From: Firmicutes bacterium UBA2203
GTDB taxonomy: Bacteria > Bacillota > Desulfotomaculia > Desulfotomaculales > Nap2-2B
Reading direction: 5' to 3'
DNA: 64,000 nt
Assembly: GCA_002327235.1 (NCBI GenBank)
Contig: DCUX01000046.1
Span: 4,032-68,031, forward strand
Below are positions 2,465 to 57,850 of this stretch, one piece after another; position 1 is the stretch's first letter; every line of letters starts with the position of its first letter. The notes beneath the pieces are model-generated. The model searched no databases. It was not told the origin of the DNA and saw nothing but the letters and a program-made list of their open reading frames with translations. Both the position numbers and the translations under genes were made by a program.

Positions 2465-3885
2465 TGGTTGCCCCTAAAAACAACAACCTTACGGGTGCGG
2501 CGGCCCCTTCGCGGGGCCGCTTCGTAAACACAGGGAACGGTCCTGTATTTCAGGCTATTGATATCGGTCACGCCGAGTATGCAGCTGTAATCGATCCGAA
2601 TACGGCCTTCTGGTTTTTAGTAAAGAGCGAAAAACTTATTGACGCAATGCTTGGGGGTGATTTAACCAGGGTCTACGCCAAAAAGACTAAACAATTCGCC
2701 GGAGAGATGAATACCCTGCGGTTTGGGCTTACACCTTCGGCGGTCTATTTTAACCCCACCGAGCGGTGCAATATGAACTGTCCCTACTGTTATATTCCCG
2801 AAAATATGCGGCGTAACGGTGAGCACATGCCCGAAAAGAAACTGCTTTTAGCCCTCGAGAAGCTAAAAACATACTTTCACCTGAACCTGCCAAAGGATTC
2901 CACGCCTCAGATCGTCTTTCATGGGGCCGAGCCCTTGCTCAATCGTCAGGCAATCTTTGCGGGCATTAAGGAATATGGCAAGGACTTTCTATTTGGCCTC
3001 CAGACCAACGCCACGCTGTTGGACGATGAGGCCGTAGAGTTTCTGACGAGCCGCAATGTGAGCATCGGACTTTCGCTGGATGCTCCAACTGCTCAGGTTG
3101 CTGCCCGTACGCGCAAGAACTGGGATGGCCAGGGAACTTTCAAGCAGGTGGTTGCGGCCATGAAGCGGCTTAACGGCTATAAAGGCTGGAGCATTATCTG
3201 TACGGTTACCAGCGCAAACCTGCGTCACCTGACAAAGTTGGTGGATTTCTTTCATGAGAAGGAAGTGCCGACGTGCCTCATGAACATCATTCGCTGTACC
3301 CTTCCGTCATCGCGTAGCCTAAAACCCGGCGACGCAGAGGCCGCCAGATGTTTCCTGGCCGCCCTGGACAGAACTTACGAACTGTATCAGCAAACCGGCC
3401 GCAAATTACCGGTGGGTAACTTTGCCAACATCCTGCTTGCCATTATTGCGCCGGCTGCCCGCCGGCTGATGTGTGACATTTCTCCCTGTGGCGGCGGGCG
3501 TTGCTTCTTCGCTTTAGCTCCTAACGGTGATATATTCCCGTGCAGTGAATTTATCGGATTGGATCGCTTCCGGGCCGGAAATTTGTTTACGGACGAAATT
3601 TCCACCGTGCTCGAAACCGAGCCGTTCCGTCTGGTCACCGGCCGAAAGGTTGAAGATATCGAGCCGTGCCGGTGTTGCGCAATACGGCATTTCTGTGGCT
3701 CTCCCTGCCCGGCCGAAGCCTACGAAATGAACGGGGGTATAAATAAGACCGGAGCATTCTGTGAATTTTATGAGGAGCAAGTGCGATATGCTTTTCGCAT
3801 CATAGCCGACGGAAAGGTTGACGCCTACCTGTGGGACGATTGGGATAAAGGCATGAAGGACACCTTTAGCCTGAGTGGCAGCTAA
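2464..3885 (+). CDS. Radical SAM / SPASM-domain peptide-modifying enzyme
   Basis: 473 aa. CNMNCPYC (CX3CX2C) motif. C-terminal Cys clusters (CDISPCGGGRC...PCSEF; CRCCAIRHFCGSPCP...FCEF) are typical of SPASM. About 95 aa of N-terminal extension could be a peptide-recognition domain. Confidence 0.9.
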   Translation: MVAPKNNNLTGAAAPSRGRFVNTGNGPVFQAIDIGHAEYAAVIDPNTAFWFLVKSEKLIDAMLGGDLTRVYAKKTKQFAGEMNTLRFGLTPSAVYFNPTERCNMNCPYCYIPENMRRNGEHMPEKKLLLALEKLKTYFHLNLPKDSTPQIVFHGAEPLLNRQAIFAGIKEYGKDFLFGLQTNATLLDDEAVEFLTSRNVSIGLSLDAPTAQVAARTRKNWDGQGTFKQVVAAMKRLNGYKGWSIICTVTSANLRHLTKLVDFFHEKEVPTCLMNIIRCTLPSSRSLKPGDAEAARCFLAALDRTYELYQQTGRKLPVGNFANILLAIIAPAARRLMCDISPCGGGRCFFALAPNGDIFPCSEFIGLDRFRAGNLFTDEISTVLETEPFRLVTGRKVEDIEPCRCCAIRHFCGSPCPAEAYEMNGGINKTGAFCEFYEEQVRYAFRIIADGKVDAYLWDDWDKGMKDTFSLSGS

Positions 3886-33744: not shown

Positions 33745-33783
33745 TTTGAGAGAATAAAGCACGGCGACTTAGGAGGTCAAGTT

Positions 33784-33987
33784 ATGAAGGAAGAGGTATC
33801 CTTTGATGAACTATTAAAAAAAGTAGACAGCCGTTTTACTTTAGTAGTTATTACCGCTAAGAGAGCCAGGGCATTGGCCGAAAAAGAAGCTGAGCAAAAT
33901 AAAAACAACACCGTGAACCCGATAGAGGCAGCTTTAGAAGAGCTAGCTAAAAACAAGATTACTTATCGGTTTCTTAAATCTGAATAA
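33784..33987 (+). CDS. rpoZ: DNA-directed RNA polymerase omega subunit
   Basis: ATG 33784 after AGGAGG. ...DSRFTLVVITAKRAR.L is diagnostic. The ORF track opens it at 33730. Confidence 0.85.
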   Translation: MKEEVSFDELLKKVDSRFTLVVITAKRARALAEKEAEQNKNNTVNPIEAALEELAKNKITYRFLKSE

Positions 33988-34001
33988 GATAAGGATAAAA
34001 T

Positions 34002-35231
34002 ATGCTGACGAAAAAATTTATTACCTTGGGAATTACAGGAGGAATTGCGGCCTATAAAGCCGCTGAATTAGCTAGCACGCTAAATCAGGCCGGGGCCGAA
34101 GTTCACGTAATTATGACCCGGGCAGCCCAAAAATTTATTAGGCCCGTAACATTTCAAGCCTTAACCGGTCAACCGGTCCACACCGCTATGTTTACCCGGT
34201 TAACTGGTTGGCGGGTGGCTCATGTTGATCTGGCTACGCGCTCCGATTTAATCGTTATAGTTCCAGCTACGGCTAATATTTTGGGTAAGTTGGCTCACGG
34301 TATTGCCGATGATTTATTAAGCACCACTCTTTTAGCGGCCACCTGCCCTGTCTTGCTTTGTCCGGCCATGAATACCGGTATGTACCAAAACCCCATTGTG
34401 CAGGCAAATATAAGCCGCTTAAAGGAACTGGGCTATTATATTATAGAACCGGCTACCGGTTGGTTGGCTTGCGGACAGGAAGGCCCTGGCAGGTTACCGG
34501 CGTTAGATTTAATTTTTAATCAGATTAAAGATTTGCTAACGAAAACAAGCAGGGCAGGTTTCCAGACGGCGCGAAGCGACTGGCAAGGACTAACGGTTAT
34601 GATTACGGCCGGAGGAACAAGAGAGCCCCTTGACCCTATCCGACATATTTCCAATCGCAGTTCGGGGAAAATGGGCTACGCTCTAGCCCGGGATGCTCTT
34701 AACCGAGGAGCCCAGGTGATTTTAATTTCCGCCCCTACAAACGTGCCTCCTCCGGTAGGCGCAAAGGTAATTTGGGTTGAAAGGACTAAAGAGATGTACG
34801 AACAGGTTTTAACCCATTTTCCAAAGGTTGACGTAGTTTTTAAAGCGGCCGCAGTAGCCGATTATTCCCCCCGGTTTAAGGCGAACCAAAAGATAAAAAA
34901 AAAGGATGAGGTATATCTGCTGGAACTGGAAAAAACTCCGGATATCCTGCTTGAATTAGGCCAACGCAAACAACCCCACCAAATCCTGGTTGGTTTTGCG
35001 GCCGAAACAGAAAATTTAGAGGAAAATGCCCGGCGTAAACTAGCTCAAAAAAATTTAGATTTAATTGTGGCTAATGACGTCACTCAGCCTGGCTCAGGAT
35101 TTGGCCAGGACACAAATATAGTTAAAATAATTTATCCCGACGGGAAGATTATCTCTTTGCCTCAAATGGAAAAAACAGCCTTAGCCCACCACATTCTTGA
35201 TTTGGTGTTACCTTTACGAGTCAAAAAATGA
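34002..35231 (+). CDS. coaBC: Bifunctional phosphopantothenoylcysteine decarboxylase / phosphopantothenate-cysteine ligase
   Basis: 409 aa. GITGGIAAYK flavoprotein N-domain. ITAGGTREPLDPIRHISNRSSGKMG ligase domain. Confidence 0.9.
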   Translation: MLTKKFITLGITGGIAAYKAAELASTLNQAGAEVHVIMTRAAQKFIRPVTFQALTGQPVHTAMFTRLTGWRVAHVDLATRSDLIVIVPATANILGKLAHGIADDLLSTTLLAATCPVLLCPAMNTGMYQNPIVQANISRLKELGYYIIEPATGWLACGQEGPGRLPALDLIFNQIKDLLTKTSRAGFQTARSDWQGLTVMITAGGTREPLDPIRHISNRSSGKMGYALARDALNRGAQVILISAPTNVPPPVGAKVIWVERTKEMYEQVLTHFPKVDVVFKAAAVADYSPRFKANQKIKKKDEVYLLELEKTPDILLELGQRKQPHQILVGFAAETENLEENARRKLAQKNLDLIVANDVTQPGSGFGQDTNIVKIIYPDGKIISLPQMEKTALAHHILDLVLPLRVKK

Positions 35232-35315
35232 AACCCCAAAAGATTACCCGGCAATCCTTCCTTTTCAAAGCATAAACAGGTCTTACTTTTCCCACATAAT
35301 ATAATAAATAAATTC

Positions 35316-35404
35316 GTAACTACTCAGGTTCAAAGGGGCAAAGGCACAAAGGCACAAAGTTTTTTCATTTTCCCTTGGACTTCTGTGCTTACCTGAATAG
35401 TTAC
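35316..35404. mobile_element. Family-D MITE-like element (89 bp) with terminal inverted repeats GTAACTACTCAGG / CCTGAATAGTTAC and 8-bp direct flank duplication
   Basis: ATAAATTC lies immediately left (35308-35315) and right (35405-35412). Internal CAAAGGCAC repeats. Related copies at 36148, 40706 and 57666. Confidence 0.75.
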
Positions 35405-35454
35405 ATAAATTCAAGGTTAACCTCCTACTTTAAAAATATAAAGCAGGTGAGAGC

Positions 35455-35544
35455 ATGGCCAAAAGGGTGCCGGTTAGTCTTTATTTCGGTATAGCATTAA
35501 TAGGCTTAGGAGGGATTATCTTAATTTTTACCGTCTTGTTTTAA
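35455..35544 (+). CDS. Possible 29-aa hydrophobic peptide (MAKRVPVSLYFGIALIGLGGIILIFTVLF)
   Basis: Short ORF after AGGTGAG. One predicted TM segment. No other support. Confidence 0.25.
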   Translation: MAKRVPVSLYFGIALIGLGGIILIFTVLF

Positions 35545-35609
35545 GAACCTAAGCTTACTCCGGCATTCCCCCGGTAATGCTAACCACCAAAGCCAGGACG
35601 AGCTTTAAT
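35543..35609 (-). pseudogene. Degenerate duplicate of the 3' end of the membrane-protein gene at 40284-40688
   Basis: Aligns with 40287-40353 (AAGA.CCTA..CTTACTCCGG....CCCCGGTAATGC...CCACCAAAGCCAGGAC.AGCTTTAA). A 1-nt deletion and an in-frame TAG are present. Confidence 0.6.
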
Positions 35610-35701
35610 CTTCTGTTGTCCGAAGACATTTTTTAGCCGGGTTAATTTATCATTGTTTTTTTCATGGTTATGGTGTTTAATTTTTATAAGGAAGGTGTTG
35701 G

Positions 35702-36133
35702 TTGATGCTTGAAAAAGAACAAAAGGAAAGATTTTTTGTTGAGGAGTTAAAAATTATTCAAGATATTATTAAACGGATGGCTTTTGATTCTTTTATGATT
35801 AAAGGATGGGCTATCACCCTGGTAATAATTACCCTTCTTTTAAAAGGCGGTAGTTTTCAGGTCTTTATTTCCTTTATTCCCCTCCTGGTTTTCTGGTATC
35901 TTGACGCTTATTTTCTCTGGCAGGAAAGAATGTATAGAAAGTTGTATAATTGGGTGGTCGAAAACAGGCTTAAAACAGAAGACTTTCTCTTTAATATGAA
36001 CGCTTACAGATTTAAAGACAAAGTGCAGGGAAAGTTAAGGATAATGTTTTCTCTTACCCTGGGGTGGTTTTATGGGTCTATAGCCGTGTTAATATTAGTA
36101 TATGCCTTTTTTATTTTAAAATGGAGGATTTAA
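35702..36133 (+). CDS. Hypothetical membrane protein (2-3 TM), AT-rich
   Basis: 143-aa ORF. No family recognised. Lies between two family-D elements. Confidence 0.45.
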   Translation: MMLEKEQKERFFVEELKIIQDIIKRMAFDSFMIKGWAITLVIITLLLKGGSFQVFISFIPLLVFWYLDAYFLWQERMYRKLYNWVVENRLKTEDFLFNMNAYRFKDKVQGKLRIMFSLTLGWFYGSIAVLILVYAFFILKWRI

Positions 36134-36147
36134 AATTAAGACAAAAG

Positions 36148-36352
36148 GTAACTATTCAGGTAGGCACGTAGGTTCAAAAGCCTGCCCGCCAGGCTGGCAG
36201 GCAGGTAATCTACCAAAAAAAGATAAATAGGCTAGCCTGCCAGACAGGCGGGGCACAAAGGTCCAAAGTGAAATGAAAACATATAGAAATTAGAAATCTG
36301 CAAGCCTGGCAAAAAACTTTGTGCCTTTGCCCCTTTGAACCTGAGTAGTTAC
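36148..36352. mobile_element. Family-D MITE-like element (205 bp) carrying a nested family-E palindrome (36181-36255)
   Basis: Ends are GTAACTATTCAGG ... CCTGAGTAGTTAC. The right 36 bp are the exact reverse complement of 35316-35351. Inside is CCTGCCCGCCAGGCTGGCAGG...CCTGCCAGACAGGCGGGGCA. Confidence 0.75.
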
Positions 36353-36381
36353 ATAAAAATTATGGTTAAGGGAGAAAATTT

Positions 36382-37291
36382 ATGGTGCCGGTTGAAAAAG
36401 TTAACCCTCGTTCCTTTGTTACGGCCTATCTTGAACGGGCCGGGGCTGTTTTAGAGGAAGCCGGTTATGAACTGCTGGAAGTACTTTTACCTGAAGGACT
36501 GCCTTTTAAAGACCAGGAAGAACTTTTACTGGCTTTTGACTATGAGGTGGCTCAGGAAAATCCAAAAGCAATCTTTGTTACTTACGGCAGCCTTTTTTTA
36601 GATCGGCGAGTGGTTAGAAGGGCATAACTTAAGGGGTTTTTACTTCCAGGCTGTATTTTCTTCATACGAAAAAACAGAGGAATTATTGGAAATTGTGGTG
36701 GATGGGCACACCGGTCTGGTAGTTTCTGATTTTAACGCCTGGTGGGGAAAGGTAGTAGCTGTAGAAGAACCTTTTTGGCAGTTGCCGCGGGCAAAAAATA
36801 TTTCCCCGGGCAAATTATACCAGGCCGCCTGCCGGGAAGCAGAAAAGCAAGCCAAAGAGCGGGCCTTAGTCTTTCAGTACCAGTCAAAAGAACGGTTAAA
36901 GAAGGAATTGGACAAAGTATCCGGGTATTACACCCAGATGAGCCGGGAAATTAAAAATAAGCTTAAAACAACCGAAGAAAAAGATAAAAGAGAACGCCTG
37001 GCAAAAAAGCTAGCGGCCGTAGAAGCGGAACGTCAGCGCCGGGAAAAGGATGCTCTTGAGCGCTACGCCATAGAAATTGCCCTGCACCTGGACCATATTG
37101 TGGACTACAGCCTGCCCCGCCTGCACGTTAAGCTGGAAGTACAACATAAAAAGCAGCTATTAAATACTACTGTCTTATACAACTTATTAGCCCACCACCT
37201 GGAAGCGCCTGTTTGCCCCCTTTGCGGCCATCCTTCCAAATGCTTGCTTCCGGATGATCAGAAAAACCGGTTTATTTGTCCTCGCCATTAA
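36382..37291 (+). pseudogene. Hypothetical coiled-coil protein with C-terminal CPLCG...CPRH zinc-ribbon-like motif, apparently frameshifted
   Basis: ORF 36382-36627 and the frame open from 36602 (continuing into ORF 36686-37291) overlap at 36602-36627. Both look coding. No family recognised. Confidence 0.4.
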
Positions 37292-37444
37292 ATAGATTTA
37301 ATGACTTGCGTTTTGAGTACCTTTATTTGGGCATTACGTCATTCATTGGGAAGCGCTCAGGTAGCTTCTTACCCTTGATTTCAGCTTCTTAATTATCAAG
37401 GGCTTTGGCGTTTGAAAGGGTGAAGTTGGGTTAACAACCCGTTC

Positions 37445-57052: not shown

Positions 57053-57730
57053 GTGGAAGGGAAAAAAATAAGGGTGAAGCAGCGCTTTTTTTACTGTCCT
57101 AAATGCGGCGGAAATTTAAAATATAAACGGTACCGAGAGCGTCCCCGTTTGGTTTGCGTTAGGTGCAGTTATGTCTTTTATGAAAACCCGGCCGTAGGGG
57201 TAGCCGCCATTGTTTTAAATAAAGACAGGCAGATATTGCTAGGAAGGCGCGGTACCACATTGGTGGATATTAGTCATCAGATGTCGGGCGTTAGAAGAAA
57301 AAAACAAACTAATTCTTCAACCATACCGGCGACCGGCAATGAACAACCGGCGAGCTTATATAAAGGACTTTGGTGCATCCCCTGTGGCTACGTTGAATAC
57401 GATGAAGATGTTTACCAGGCGGTGATCCGGGAATTTAAAGAGGAAACCAATTTGGACATTATCTTAAATGGGGTTTTTACGGTACAGTCTAATTTCCATA
57501 ATCCTGAACTGCATACCGTAGGAATATGGTTTATGGCTAAAGTAACGGGGGGAGAATTGCGGGCGGGAGACGATTTAGACCAACTGGCTTATTGTAGTTT
57601 AACTGACCCGCCACCGCTTGCTTTTCCTACGGATAAAATTGTCCTGGACATGCTGGCTAAAACCTTTCAGGTAGGCACAGAGGAGCAAAGGCACAGAGGC
57701 ACAAAGGGAAATGAAACAACCATGCTGTAG
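57053..57730 (+). CDS. NUDIX hydrolase with N-terminal zinc ribbon, an internal ~30-aa insertion and a repeat-derived C-terminal tail
   Basis: CPKCGG...CVRC ribbon. Nudix box GYVEYDEDVYQAVIREFKEETNL. About 40 residues lie between LLGRRG and GLW, where I recall roughly 8-10 in NUDIX proteins. The last ~20 codons lie in the family-D element. Confidence 0.75.
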   Translation: MEGKKIRVKQRFFYCPKCGGNLKYKRYRERPRLVCVRCSYVFYENPAVGVAAIVLNKDRQILLGRRGTTLVDISHQMSGVRRKKQTNSSTIPATGNEQPASLYKGLWCIPCGYVEYDEDVYQAVIREFKEETNLDIILNGVFTVQSNFHNPELHTVGIWFMAKVTGGELRAGDDLDQLAYCSLTDPPPLAFPTDKIVLDMLAKTFQVGTEEQRHRGTKGNETTML

Positions 57731-57850
57731 GGGCATATTGCAATACGCCCCTACAAAGGAGAATGAAAATCCAAGGATTTTCGGATGAAAACATATAGAG
57801 ATCTGCAGGTCTGGCAAAAAAACTTTGTGCCTTTGAACCTGAGTAGTTAC
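57666..57850. mobile_element. Family-D element lacking its left terminal repeat, carrying a nested variant family-A palindrome (57727-57754)
   Basis: TTCAGGTAGGCAC... shared with 36155. Right end ...CTGGCAAAAAAACTTTGTGCCTTTGAACCTGAGTAGTTAC shared with 36305-36352. Nested GTAGGGGCATATTGCAATACGCCCCTAC contains the NUDIX TAG stop. Confidence 0.7.

Follow-up and report, generated by a model that had tools for sequence, protein, structure and literature searches.

Family-D elements downstream of coaBC

The 64-kb stretch of Firmicutes bacterium UBA2203 analysed here (64,000 nucleotides of contig DCUX01000046.1; hereafter the window) carries, downstream of coaBC, two short repeats in inverted orientation, an 89-bp copy at 35316-35404 and a 205-bp copy at 36148-36352, with an open reading frame (ORF) for a 143-aa membrane protein between them. 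Both repeats belong to a family here called family D. [quoted passage not shown] The 89-bp copy and its flanks are organized as follows (L numbers denote loci used for comparison).

35308-35315, strand not applicable: left copy of the target-site duplication, ATAAATTC, present as a single copy at the site in relatives L224 and L129/L130
35316-35404, minus strand: 89-bp family-D MITE, starting GTAACTACTCAGG and ending CCTGAATAGTTAC, with ISBst12-type termini and octamer repeats of the GGCACAAAG type
35405-35412, strand not applicable: right copy of the target-site duplication, ATAAATTC, read from the sequence

The first-pass annotation of this DNA had noted the octamer ATAAATTC on both sides of the 89-bp element, and reading of the sequence bore this out. 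The left arm of the element (35316-35351) had been described as exactly reverse-complementary to the 205-bp copy's right end (36317-36352), and the two are indeed complementary over 36 nt at 100%. For the inner ends (35375-35404 and 36148-36177), which had been described as inverted copies with one mismatch, this holds for the outermost ~17 nt only: the terminal 14 nt are perfect, and over 30 nt the complementarity is 83%. The 89-bp element folds as a hairpin, with a z score of -5.0 on the minus strand.

Duplication of the target site and empty sites in relatives

Empty sites, suggested earlier as a check, were found in two related lineages. In Peptococcaceae bacterium SCADC1_2_3 (L224), the octamer ATAAATTC occurs once and is directly followed by GAGGTTAATC, and the window reads ATAAATTC, the 89 bp, ATAAATTC again and then AAGGTTAACC. 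In the wider context, ATAAATAAATTC is joined to GAGGTTAATCTCC in SCADC1_2_3 and is followed in the window by the 89 bp, ATAAATTC and AAGGTTAACCTCC, a precise difference of 97 bp. The second empty site, in the L129/L130 lineage, likewise has a single ATAAATTC and no element, and contains 27 bp fewer than that of SCADC1_2_3. Since SCADC1_2_3 retains those 27 bp, the gap in L129/L130 is a separate deletion. The 27 bp following the second ATAAATTC were also considered as part of the insertion, and were ruled out by their presence at the SCADC1_2_3 empty site.

The family was then surveyed by scanning for the end motif CTTTGNNCCTGAGTAGTTAC in one genome per species, which gave at least 112 loci; the hits listed were metagenome-assembled genomes (MAGs) labelled Desulfobacterales, Syntrophobacterales, Nitrospirota, Verrucomicrobiota, Thermotogae, Firmicutes and ANME-1. 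Pairing of the termini among the loci listed yielded 91 distinct small elements from other genomes. Identical 8-mers flanked 24 of the 91, and a further 10 matched at 7/8 positions; at ten shifted control offsets no perfect match was observed, and no perfect case fitted 9 bp. The earlier view of the octamer pair as a signature of transposition, for which such a survey had been proposed, was thus supported: family-wide duplications and the empty sites of relatives together indicate that the 8-bp duplication is a true transposition footprint.

D-type elements were also present on contigs binned as ANME-1 (Methanophagales; L025, L033, L042 and L074), one of them with the perfect duplication CTATATAA. 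A literature search for the terminus sequence returned only unrelated primers, and Rfam detected no family in window 35000-36700. Short-read assemblies of the same strain (L004-L006) end inside the 89-bp element, ~110 bp after coaBC. D repeats break short-read assemblies, which is relevant to MAG quality in these lineages.

Other copies in the window

A search with the terminus motif revealed four D copies in the 64-kb window (at 35316, 36148 and 40706, and one ending at 57850), far above the expectation from shuffled sequence; the fourth had been missed in the earlier list. All are 89-205 bp long and lack a transposase, every copy having both ends shows 13-14-nt perfect terminal inverted repeats, and all fold as long hairpins (z -2.9 to -8.3). 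The copies other than that at 35316 have the following features.

36148-36352, plus strand: 205-bp family-D copy without target duplication, flanked by GACAAAAG and ATAAAAAT (4/8 bases matching)
36185-36252, strand not applicable: G+C-rich internal hairpin of the 205-bp copy, with 18-nt arms that are 89% complementary
36273-36316, plus strand: what is left, in degenerate form, of the opening ~12 codons of a four-helix-bundle gene, ATGAAAACATATAGAAATTAGAAATCTGCAAGCCTGGCAAAAAA, aligning with the intact 57785-57820 remnant and with L028
40706-40820, strand not applicable: 115-bp family-D copy without target duplication, flanks 3/8 matching, hairpin z -8.3
57659-57850, plus strand: fourth family-D copy, with a degenerate left terminus (AAAACCTTTCAGG) and MKTYRDLQVWQK at 57785-57820

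The earlier statement that the copies at 36148 and 40706 lack clean duplications agrees with these 4/8 and 3/8 flank matches. A 225-aa ORF (57053-57730) runs into the fourth copy, and the element provides about 20 codons at its 3' end together with the stop (...FQVGTEEQRHRGTKGNETTML*).

Relationship of the termini to the ISBst12 group of IS66

The D terminus, GTAACTACTCAG(G), is the end of ISBst12-group insertion sequences (ISs) of the IS66 family: it is identical in L221, L219, L228, L229 and L230, and close in ISDge4. A complete IS was obtained from metagenomes by searching with a DDE transposase fragment. It is 1620 bp long (L221/L222 2060-3679), has the termini GTAACTACTCAGG and CCTGAGTAGTTAC, and contains one ORF of 513 aa that matches DDE_Tnp_IS66 (E 7e-36) and zf-IS66; in L218, a DDE gene abuts the same CCTGAGTAGTTAC. 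Viral contigs searched with the same fragment gave no related locus. The flanks of the IS in L221 (2040-2059 and 3680-3710) are mutually inverted, TTGTCATA ... TATGACAA, which suggests a palindromic target.

Annotated members of the family agree with this assignment. On a Segatella copri plasmid, an element with an IS66 family transposase (L228) is 1825 bp long with GTAACTACTCAGC at both ends and the duplication GAAGCGTT; another on a Bacillus cereus plasmid (L229) is 1622 bp long with the duplication GAAAAATT; and a third with the same ends, on a Deinococcus wulumuqiensis plasmid, is 1454 bp long and has no duplication. ISDge4 of the ISBst12 group, for which transposition has been observed, has terminal inverted repeats GTGACTACTCAGCA/GTAACTGCTCAGCA and the 8-bp direct repeat CCTCGATG (PMC12898284). 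As judged from sequence comparison, the cross-phylum conservation of the D terminus is that of the conserved end of one transposase group. A second GTAACTACTCAGC terminus lies 120 bp upstream of the B. cereus IS (L229 300-420) and could represent either a solo end in tandem or a mini-element.

A deletion derivative of such an IS was found on a viral contig (L176): 677 bp with GTAACTACTCAGGTTC at both ends. Between these it encodes the N-terminal portion of a protein, and zf-IS66 and DDE_Tnp_IS66 domains are found in longer relatives of that protein. The L176 element was the sole true element among the 66 hits of a viral-contig scan with AACCTGAGTAGTTAC, nearly all of which were chance matches without repeat context. 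The 135-aa fragment encoded by L176 gave only a sub-threshold match to DUF6444, and the link to IS66 came instead via P0244/L218 and L221.

The 13-nt termini GTAACTAYTCAGG are those on which single-ORF DDE transposases of the IS66 family act, and we propose that an enzyme of this type supplied in trans would cut the target with an 8-bp stagger to generate the ATAAATTC duplication. The 89-bp copy inserted cleanly upstream of the gene island described below, presumably by this route.

Origin of the interior from a four-helix-bundle gene cassette

Intact elements with the same termini are 459 bp long. One lies exactly between aroA and aroK (L135 1457-1915) with the perfect duplication TACGAATA; a second, in L142, has the perfect duplication GAAGGAAT, and the site in L234 matches at 7/8 positions. 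The shorter elements represent graded internal deletions of this 459-bp cassette. Many of the termini in MAG loci sit just upstream of ATGAAGATTGAACGGTTTGAAGATATTGAGGC..., coding MKIERFEDIEAWQ. In L034, the ORF was rebuilt by removing a nested insertion of ~165 bp and a frameshift, and its product matched PF05635 (23S rRNA-intervening sequence protein) at E 7e-25 as well as TIGR02436 (four helix bundle protein). Similarity to the L034 product was seen in more than 3400 database proteins, the best 120 of them at 83-93% identity. The nested insertion (L034 ~3150-3320, minus strand) is a different tiny MITE, with inverted ends GAGACCTTTGCAAAA...TTTTGCAAAGGTCTC and AAGAT on both sides.

The window copies belong to the GGCACAAAG-repeat subfamily and retain the gene to different extents. 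The copy at 57.6 kb and one from Firmicutes UBA4795 keep ATG AAA ACA TAT AGA GAT CTG CAG GTC TGG CAA AAA (MKTYRDLQVWQK). The 12 codons kept in the longer window copies are too short for the family model and fit the motif M..Y.DL.VWQ, which recurs at the N-termini of bona fide members of the four-helix-bundle family. In six-frame translations of the loci searched, this N-terminal motif was found at only four separate positions, each within a four-helix-bundle gene or one of these remnants. Only the ATG is kept in the 89-bp copy, as judged from alignment. In our reading, family D arose by internal deletion from a 459-bp, passenger-only mobile insertion cassette, in which ISBst12 ends are combined with inverted 8-nt repeat arrays and a four-helix-bundle gene of 130 aa. 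Through the terminus motif, the four-helix-bundle genes that occur by the thousand, nearly identical, in uncultured anaerobes are connected with a defined transposase family.

The DNA between the two copies

The region from the 89-bp copy to beyond the 205-bp copy contains the following genes and remnants.

35455-35544, plus strand: 29-codon hydrophobic ORF, resident; called as a gene in SCADC1_2_3 (L223 2533-2622) and aligning to L129 9032-9139
35542-35686, strand not applicable: 145-bp stretch at the position of radC, common to SCADC1_2_3; L129/L130 carry a full radC (842 bp)
35702-36133, plus strand: gene for the 143-aa membrane protein PDC-M50A, one member of a candidate TIR-based defence pair, orphaned; PADLOC PDLC04684, E 3e-48; syntenic in relatives
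36382-37291, plus strand: homologue of a 350-aa gene in ORFs of 81 and 201 aa; residues 1-76 and 122-350 in different frames by tblastn

The 29-codon ORF and the AT-rich 143-aa ORF reported earlier between the copies both exist. The 143-aa protein had been regarded as belonging to no recognisable family; Pfam and NCBIfam indeed gave no match, and this description is only partly right, as in PADLOC the protein matches the candidate PDC-M50A. The family has 1257 database homologues, and the best hits from other phyla are ~70-79% identical. Conservation at this level between Firmicutes, Nitrospirota and Ignavibacteria is unusual for a small membrane protein.

M50A in a related Peptococcaceae lineage, as in Nitrospirota and one further metagenomic lineage, is directly followed by a ThsB-like TIR gene (PF08937; PDC-M50B/ThsB models). 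This TIR partner was found in L119, L122 and L126-L131, always after M50A in intact loci; M50A overlaps or abuts it, often near radC and restriction-modification-like genes. In L126-L131, the gene order after remA-gmk-rpoZ-coaBC is radC, M50A, TIR, N6/N4 methyltransferase, ResIII/SWI2-SNF2 protein, SNF2 helicase and the 350-aa protein, and no D termini are present in these loci at the positions of either window copy (35316, 36148). Alignment of the window with L129 gave the following correspondence.

Window 33765-35315, L129 7486-9037: 94% identity
Window 35434-35541, L129 9032-9139: aligned
Window 35542-35686, L129 radC position (842 bp): radC absent in the window
Window 35687-36136, L129 9982-10438: 89% identity
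Window 36137-36355 (including the 205-bp copy), L129 10439-17803: replaced in the window
Window 36356-37292, L129 17804-18885: aligned

The inter-copy DNA is thus found at the same place after coaBC in relatives, at ~87-94% nucleotide identity and with no D element there. Because the same gene and the 29-codon ORF occupy this position in relatives without a D element there, the DNA between the copies at 35316 and 36148 is not cargo; it is the resident, syntenic remains of a decaying defence island downstream of coaBC. SCADC1_2_3, the closest named relative, is intermediate: it lacks a D element and has kept M50A, a 5' TIR stub, the SNF2 helicase and the gene for the 350-aa protein. In the window, tblastn of 35200-37400 detected no RadC or TIR protein remnant, and homology on the TIR side ends at 36136. 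The 350-aa gene is intact in relatives, and its product matched nothing in Pfam or NCBIfam and nothing convincingly in PADLOC; the window copy is ~45 codons short and changes frame, and is probably a pseudogene. In another Peptococcaceae MAG (L227 3490-3903), M50A is followed by a DDE_5 transposase fragment and the helicase and 350-aa genes lie upstream, not downstream, marking a rearrangement hot spot.

Deletion at the 205-bp copy

The 205-bp copy stands in for 7.4 kb of L129 (10439-17803) and for 2.4 kb of L224 (3429-5822). It marks the breakpoint of a deletion of TIR and downstream genes, and is not the transposon end of a composite. The TIR and helicase gene(s) would most likely have been lost by an element-mediated adjacent deletion or by recombination between two copies, and either event would account for the missing duplication at this copy.

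As an alternative, the deletion may have been unrelated to the element: the island decayed in the ordinary way, the element landed later at or near the scar, and its duplication was lost by mutation. Decay of this kind does occur here, since SCADC1_2_3 lost the 3' part of TIR, the methyltransferase and ResIII without any D element, and radC is also deleted in the window without one. The 7-mer ACAAAAG, left of the 205-bp copy (36140-36147) and also just upstream of the right junction in L224 (~5800) and L227 (~1470), hints at microhomology, and may equally be chance. However, homology to relatives stops within ~10 nt of both ends of the element, and flanks that match at only 4/8 positions are hard to obtain by point mutation with the termini intact. 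A deletion independent of the element is the less likely course, and we favour loss at the element itself.

Weighing of the interpretation

Several points weigh against the reading of family D as an ISBst12-type MITE with an element-associated deletion. No IS66-family transposase ORF is present in any D copy or elsewhere in the 64-kb window; D is for this reason a derivative and not an IS, and mobilisation in trans in this organism is what we infer. The full-length ISs with the most similar termini, L219 and L221, are themselves without duplications. Of the three other copies in the window, two lack a duplication although their ends are intact, and in the fourth copy the left end is degenerate. 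Some four-helix-bundle cassettes (the delta-type copy in L237, ~85% protein identity) have the repeats and neither GTAAC ends nor terminal inverted repeats, so that a different route of movement, or of persistence, may also exist for the cassette. Finally, the link of the 205-bp copy to the deletion is positional only.

The elements might be real transposons moved by an enzyme other than the ISBst12/IS66 transposase, either the four-helix-bundle protein itself or another enzyme sharing the end sequence. None of the ~290 termini in MAG loci has a transposase beside it, no autonomous IS was detected beside the MITEs when all MAG loci were searched for GTAA...TTAC pairs at spacings of 0.7-4.5 kb, cassettes without GTAAC ends exist (L237, L231-L233), and the ORF of rRNA intervening sequences has been proposed in the literature as a mobility factor (PMC4990558). 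This explanation is nevertheless unlikely, as the 12-13-nt terminus and the duplication length are identical to those of IS66-family ISs in four phyla, and as most copies have lost the ORF yet show perfect duplications. We know of no strand-transfer catalytic motif in such a 130-aa helical bundle, which counts against the protein as mover.

The two inverted copies had originally been interpreted as a composite, MITE-bounded unit mobilising the 143-aa gene, or as one element split by cargo. The inverted arrangement with 36-nt perfect outer arms, the low G+C content of the gene (33% against 43% for the window), its wide transfer between phyla and the 5/8 bases shared by the outer flanks would fit such a unit. 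Conservation of the block in synteny, named at the outset as evidence to the contrary, was however found for the inter-copy DNA: the gene and the 29-codon ORF have the same position after coaBC in three relatives with no D element there. A perfect duplication belongs to the 89-bp copy alone, for which a clean empty site is also known, the outer flanks (ATAAATTC and ATAAAAAT) are not a duplication, and in every other genome examined the M50A gene travels with the TIR gene and not with D elements. The original interpretation is thus very improbable. Least probable, to a negligible degree, is coincidence of the ATAAATTC pair in AT-rich DNA around a non-mobile palindromic (REP-like) element, which the AT-rich target and the lack of duplications at three of the four window copies might suggest, and which fails against the 24 perfect matches at the true junction (none at ten control offsets) and the empty sites in relatives.

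The annotation of the window is corrected accordingly: the repeats are IS66-type MITEs, and the 143-aa gene is an orphaned component of a candidate defence system. The locus shows how a defence island decayed in steps, one of whose breakpoints is occupied by a transposon copy.

Relation to 23S rRNA intervening sequences

The PF05635 family takes its name from intervening sequences (IVSs) of 23S rRNA. The Coxiella IVS is 428-444 nt long, with a PF05635 ORF after tandem heptamers and 28-bp complementary ends, and the origin of IVS-type cassettes has been debated since 1990 (PMC4990558). No 23S motif was detected in any fetched locus, and the window copies are intergenic. Distant four-helix-bundle or 'S23 ribosomal protein' genes on plasmids of Riemerella (L231), Nostoc (L232) and Calothrix (L233) lack GTAAC termini. 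Each of them lies between two arrays, inverted to each other, of tandem repeats of 7-8 nt (GGTTCAAGG..., GGGGAAAAGGG... and GGGTGTAGGGTGT..., respectively), an architecture that matches the Coxiella IVS.

Since the repeat arrays occur without GTAAC ends in these distant genes, the arrays are part of the gene cassette, and the 13-nt termini part of the IS. We tentatively suggest, as one possible history, that a four-helix-bundle cassette was captured between ISBst12 ends in anaerobes, giving rise to the 459-bp transposon and its MITEs, which then, generating 8-bp duplications, reached Desulfobacterota, Nitrospirota, Firmicutes, NC10, Verrucomicrobiota and, apparently, ANME-1 archaea. The terminus motif offers a concrete and testable route for the mobility of IVS-type cassettes. 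Should the 23S IVSs of Leptospira and Coxiella prove to be insertions of this cassette as well, it would provide the long-missing mechanism for entry of IVSs into rRNA genes.

Comparison with known systems

With respect to the PDC-M50 system of PADLOC and ThsB of Thoeris, the 143-aa protein matches PDC-M50A and its usual neighbour matches PDC-M50B and the ThsB TIR protein. Unlike in intact PDC-M50 loci, the TIR partner has been deleted in the window and the membrane component alone remains.

The ORF-bearing 23S IVSs of Coxiella and Leptospira resemble the cassette in size (~440-460 bp), in the tandem 7-8-nt repeats preceding a PF05635 ORF and in complementary ends that form a long stem (PMC4990558). 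In contrast to these rRNA IVSs, no D or cassette copy seen lies in an rRNA gene.

Mobile insertion cassettes (MICs), such as MIC231 of Bacillus cereus, have IS-type ends around a passenger gene, carry no transposase and are mobilised in trans. IS66 members with passenger genes (tIS66) have also been documented (PMC12888890). The cassette described here is similar to both in that IS-type ends enclose a passenger gene, and to MICs also in its lack of transposase. It differs in that the passenger is a PF05635 four-helix-bundle gene with its own flanking inverted repeat arrays, and in that its mobilisation is putative.

Among MITEs, Chunjie of Geobacter, Nezha and Correia share with family D the small size, terminal inverted repeats, target duplication, AT-rich targets, hairpin folding and location in intergenic regions, with an occasional overlap of gene ends (PMC3184786). 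Chunjie is set apart by its description, with 21-bp terminal inverted repeats and 9-bp direct repeats (PMC3184786), and the latter, against 8 bp in D, argue against identity of the two.

With the ISBst12 group (ISBst12, ISDge4), family D shares the terminus GTAACTACTCAG and the 8-bp target duplication. Unlike the ISs of this group, which are 1.45-1.8 kb long, family-D elements are 89-205 bp long, contain no transposase gene, and have an interior that comes from a four-helix-bundle gene cassette.

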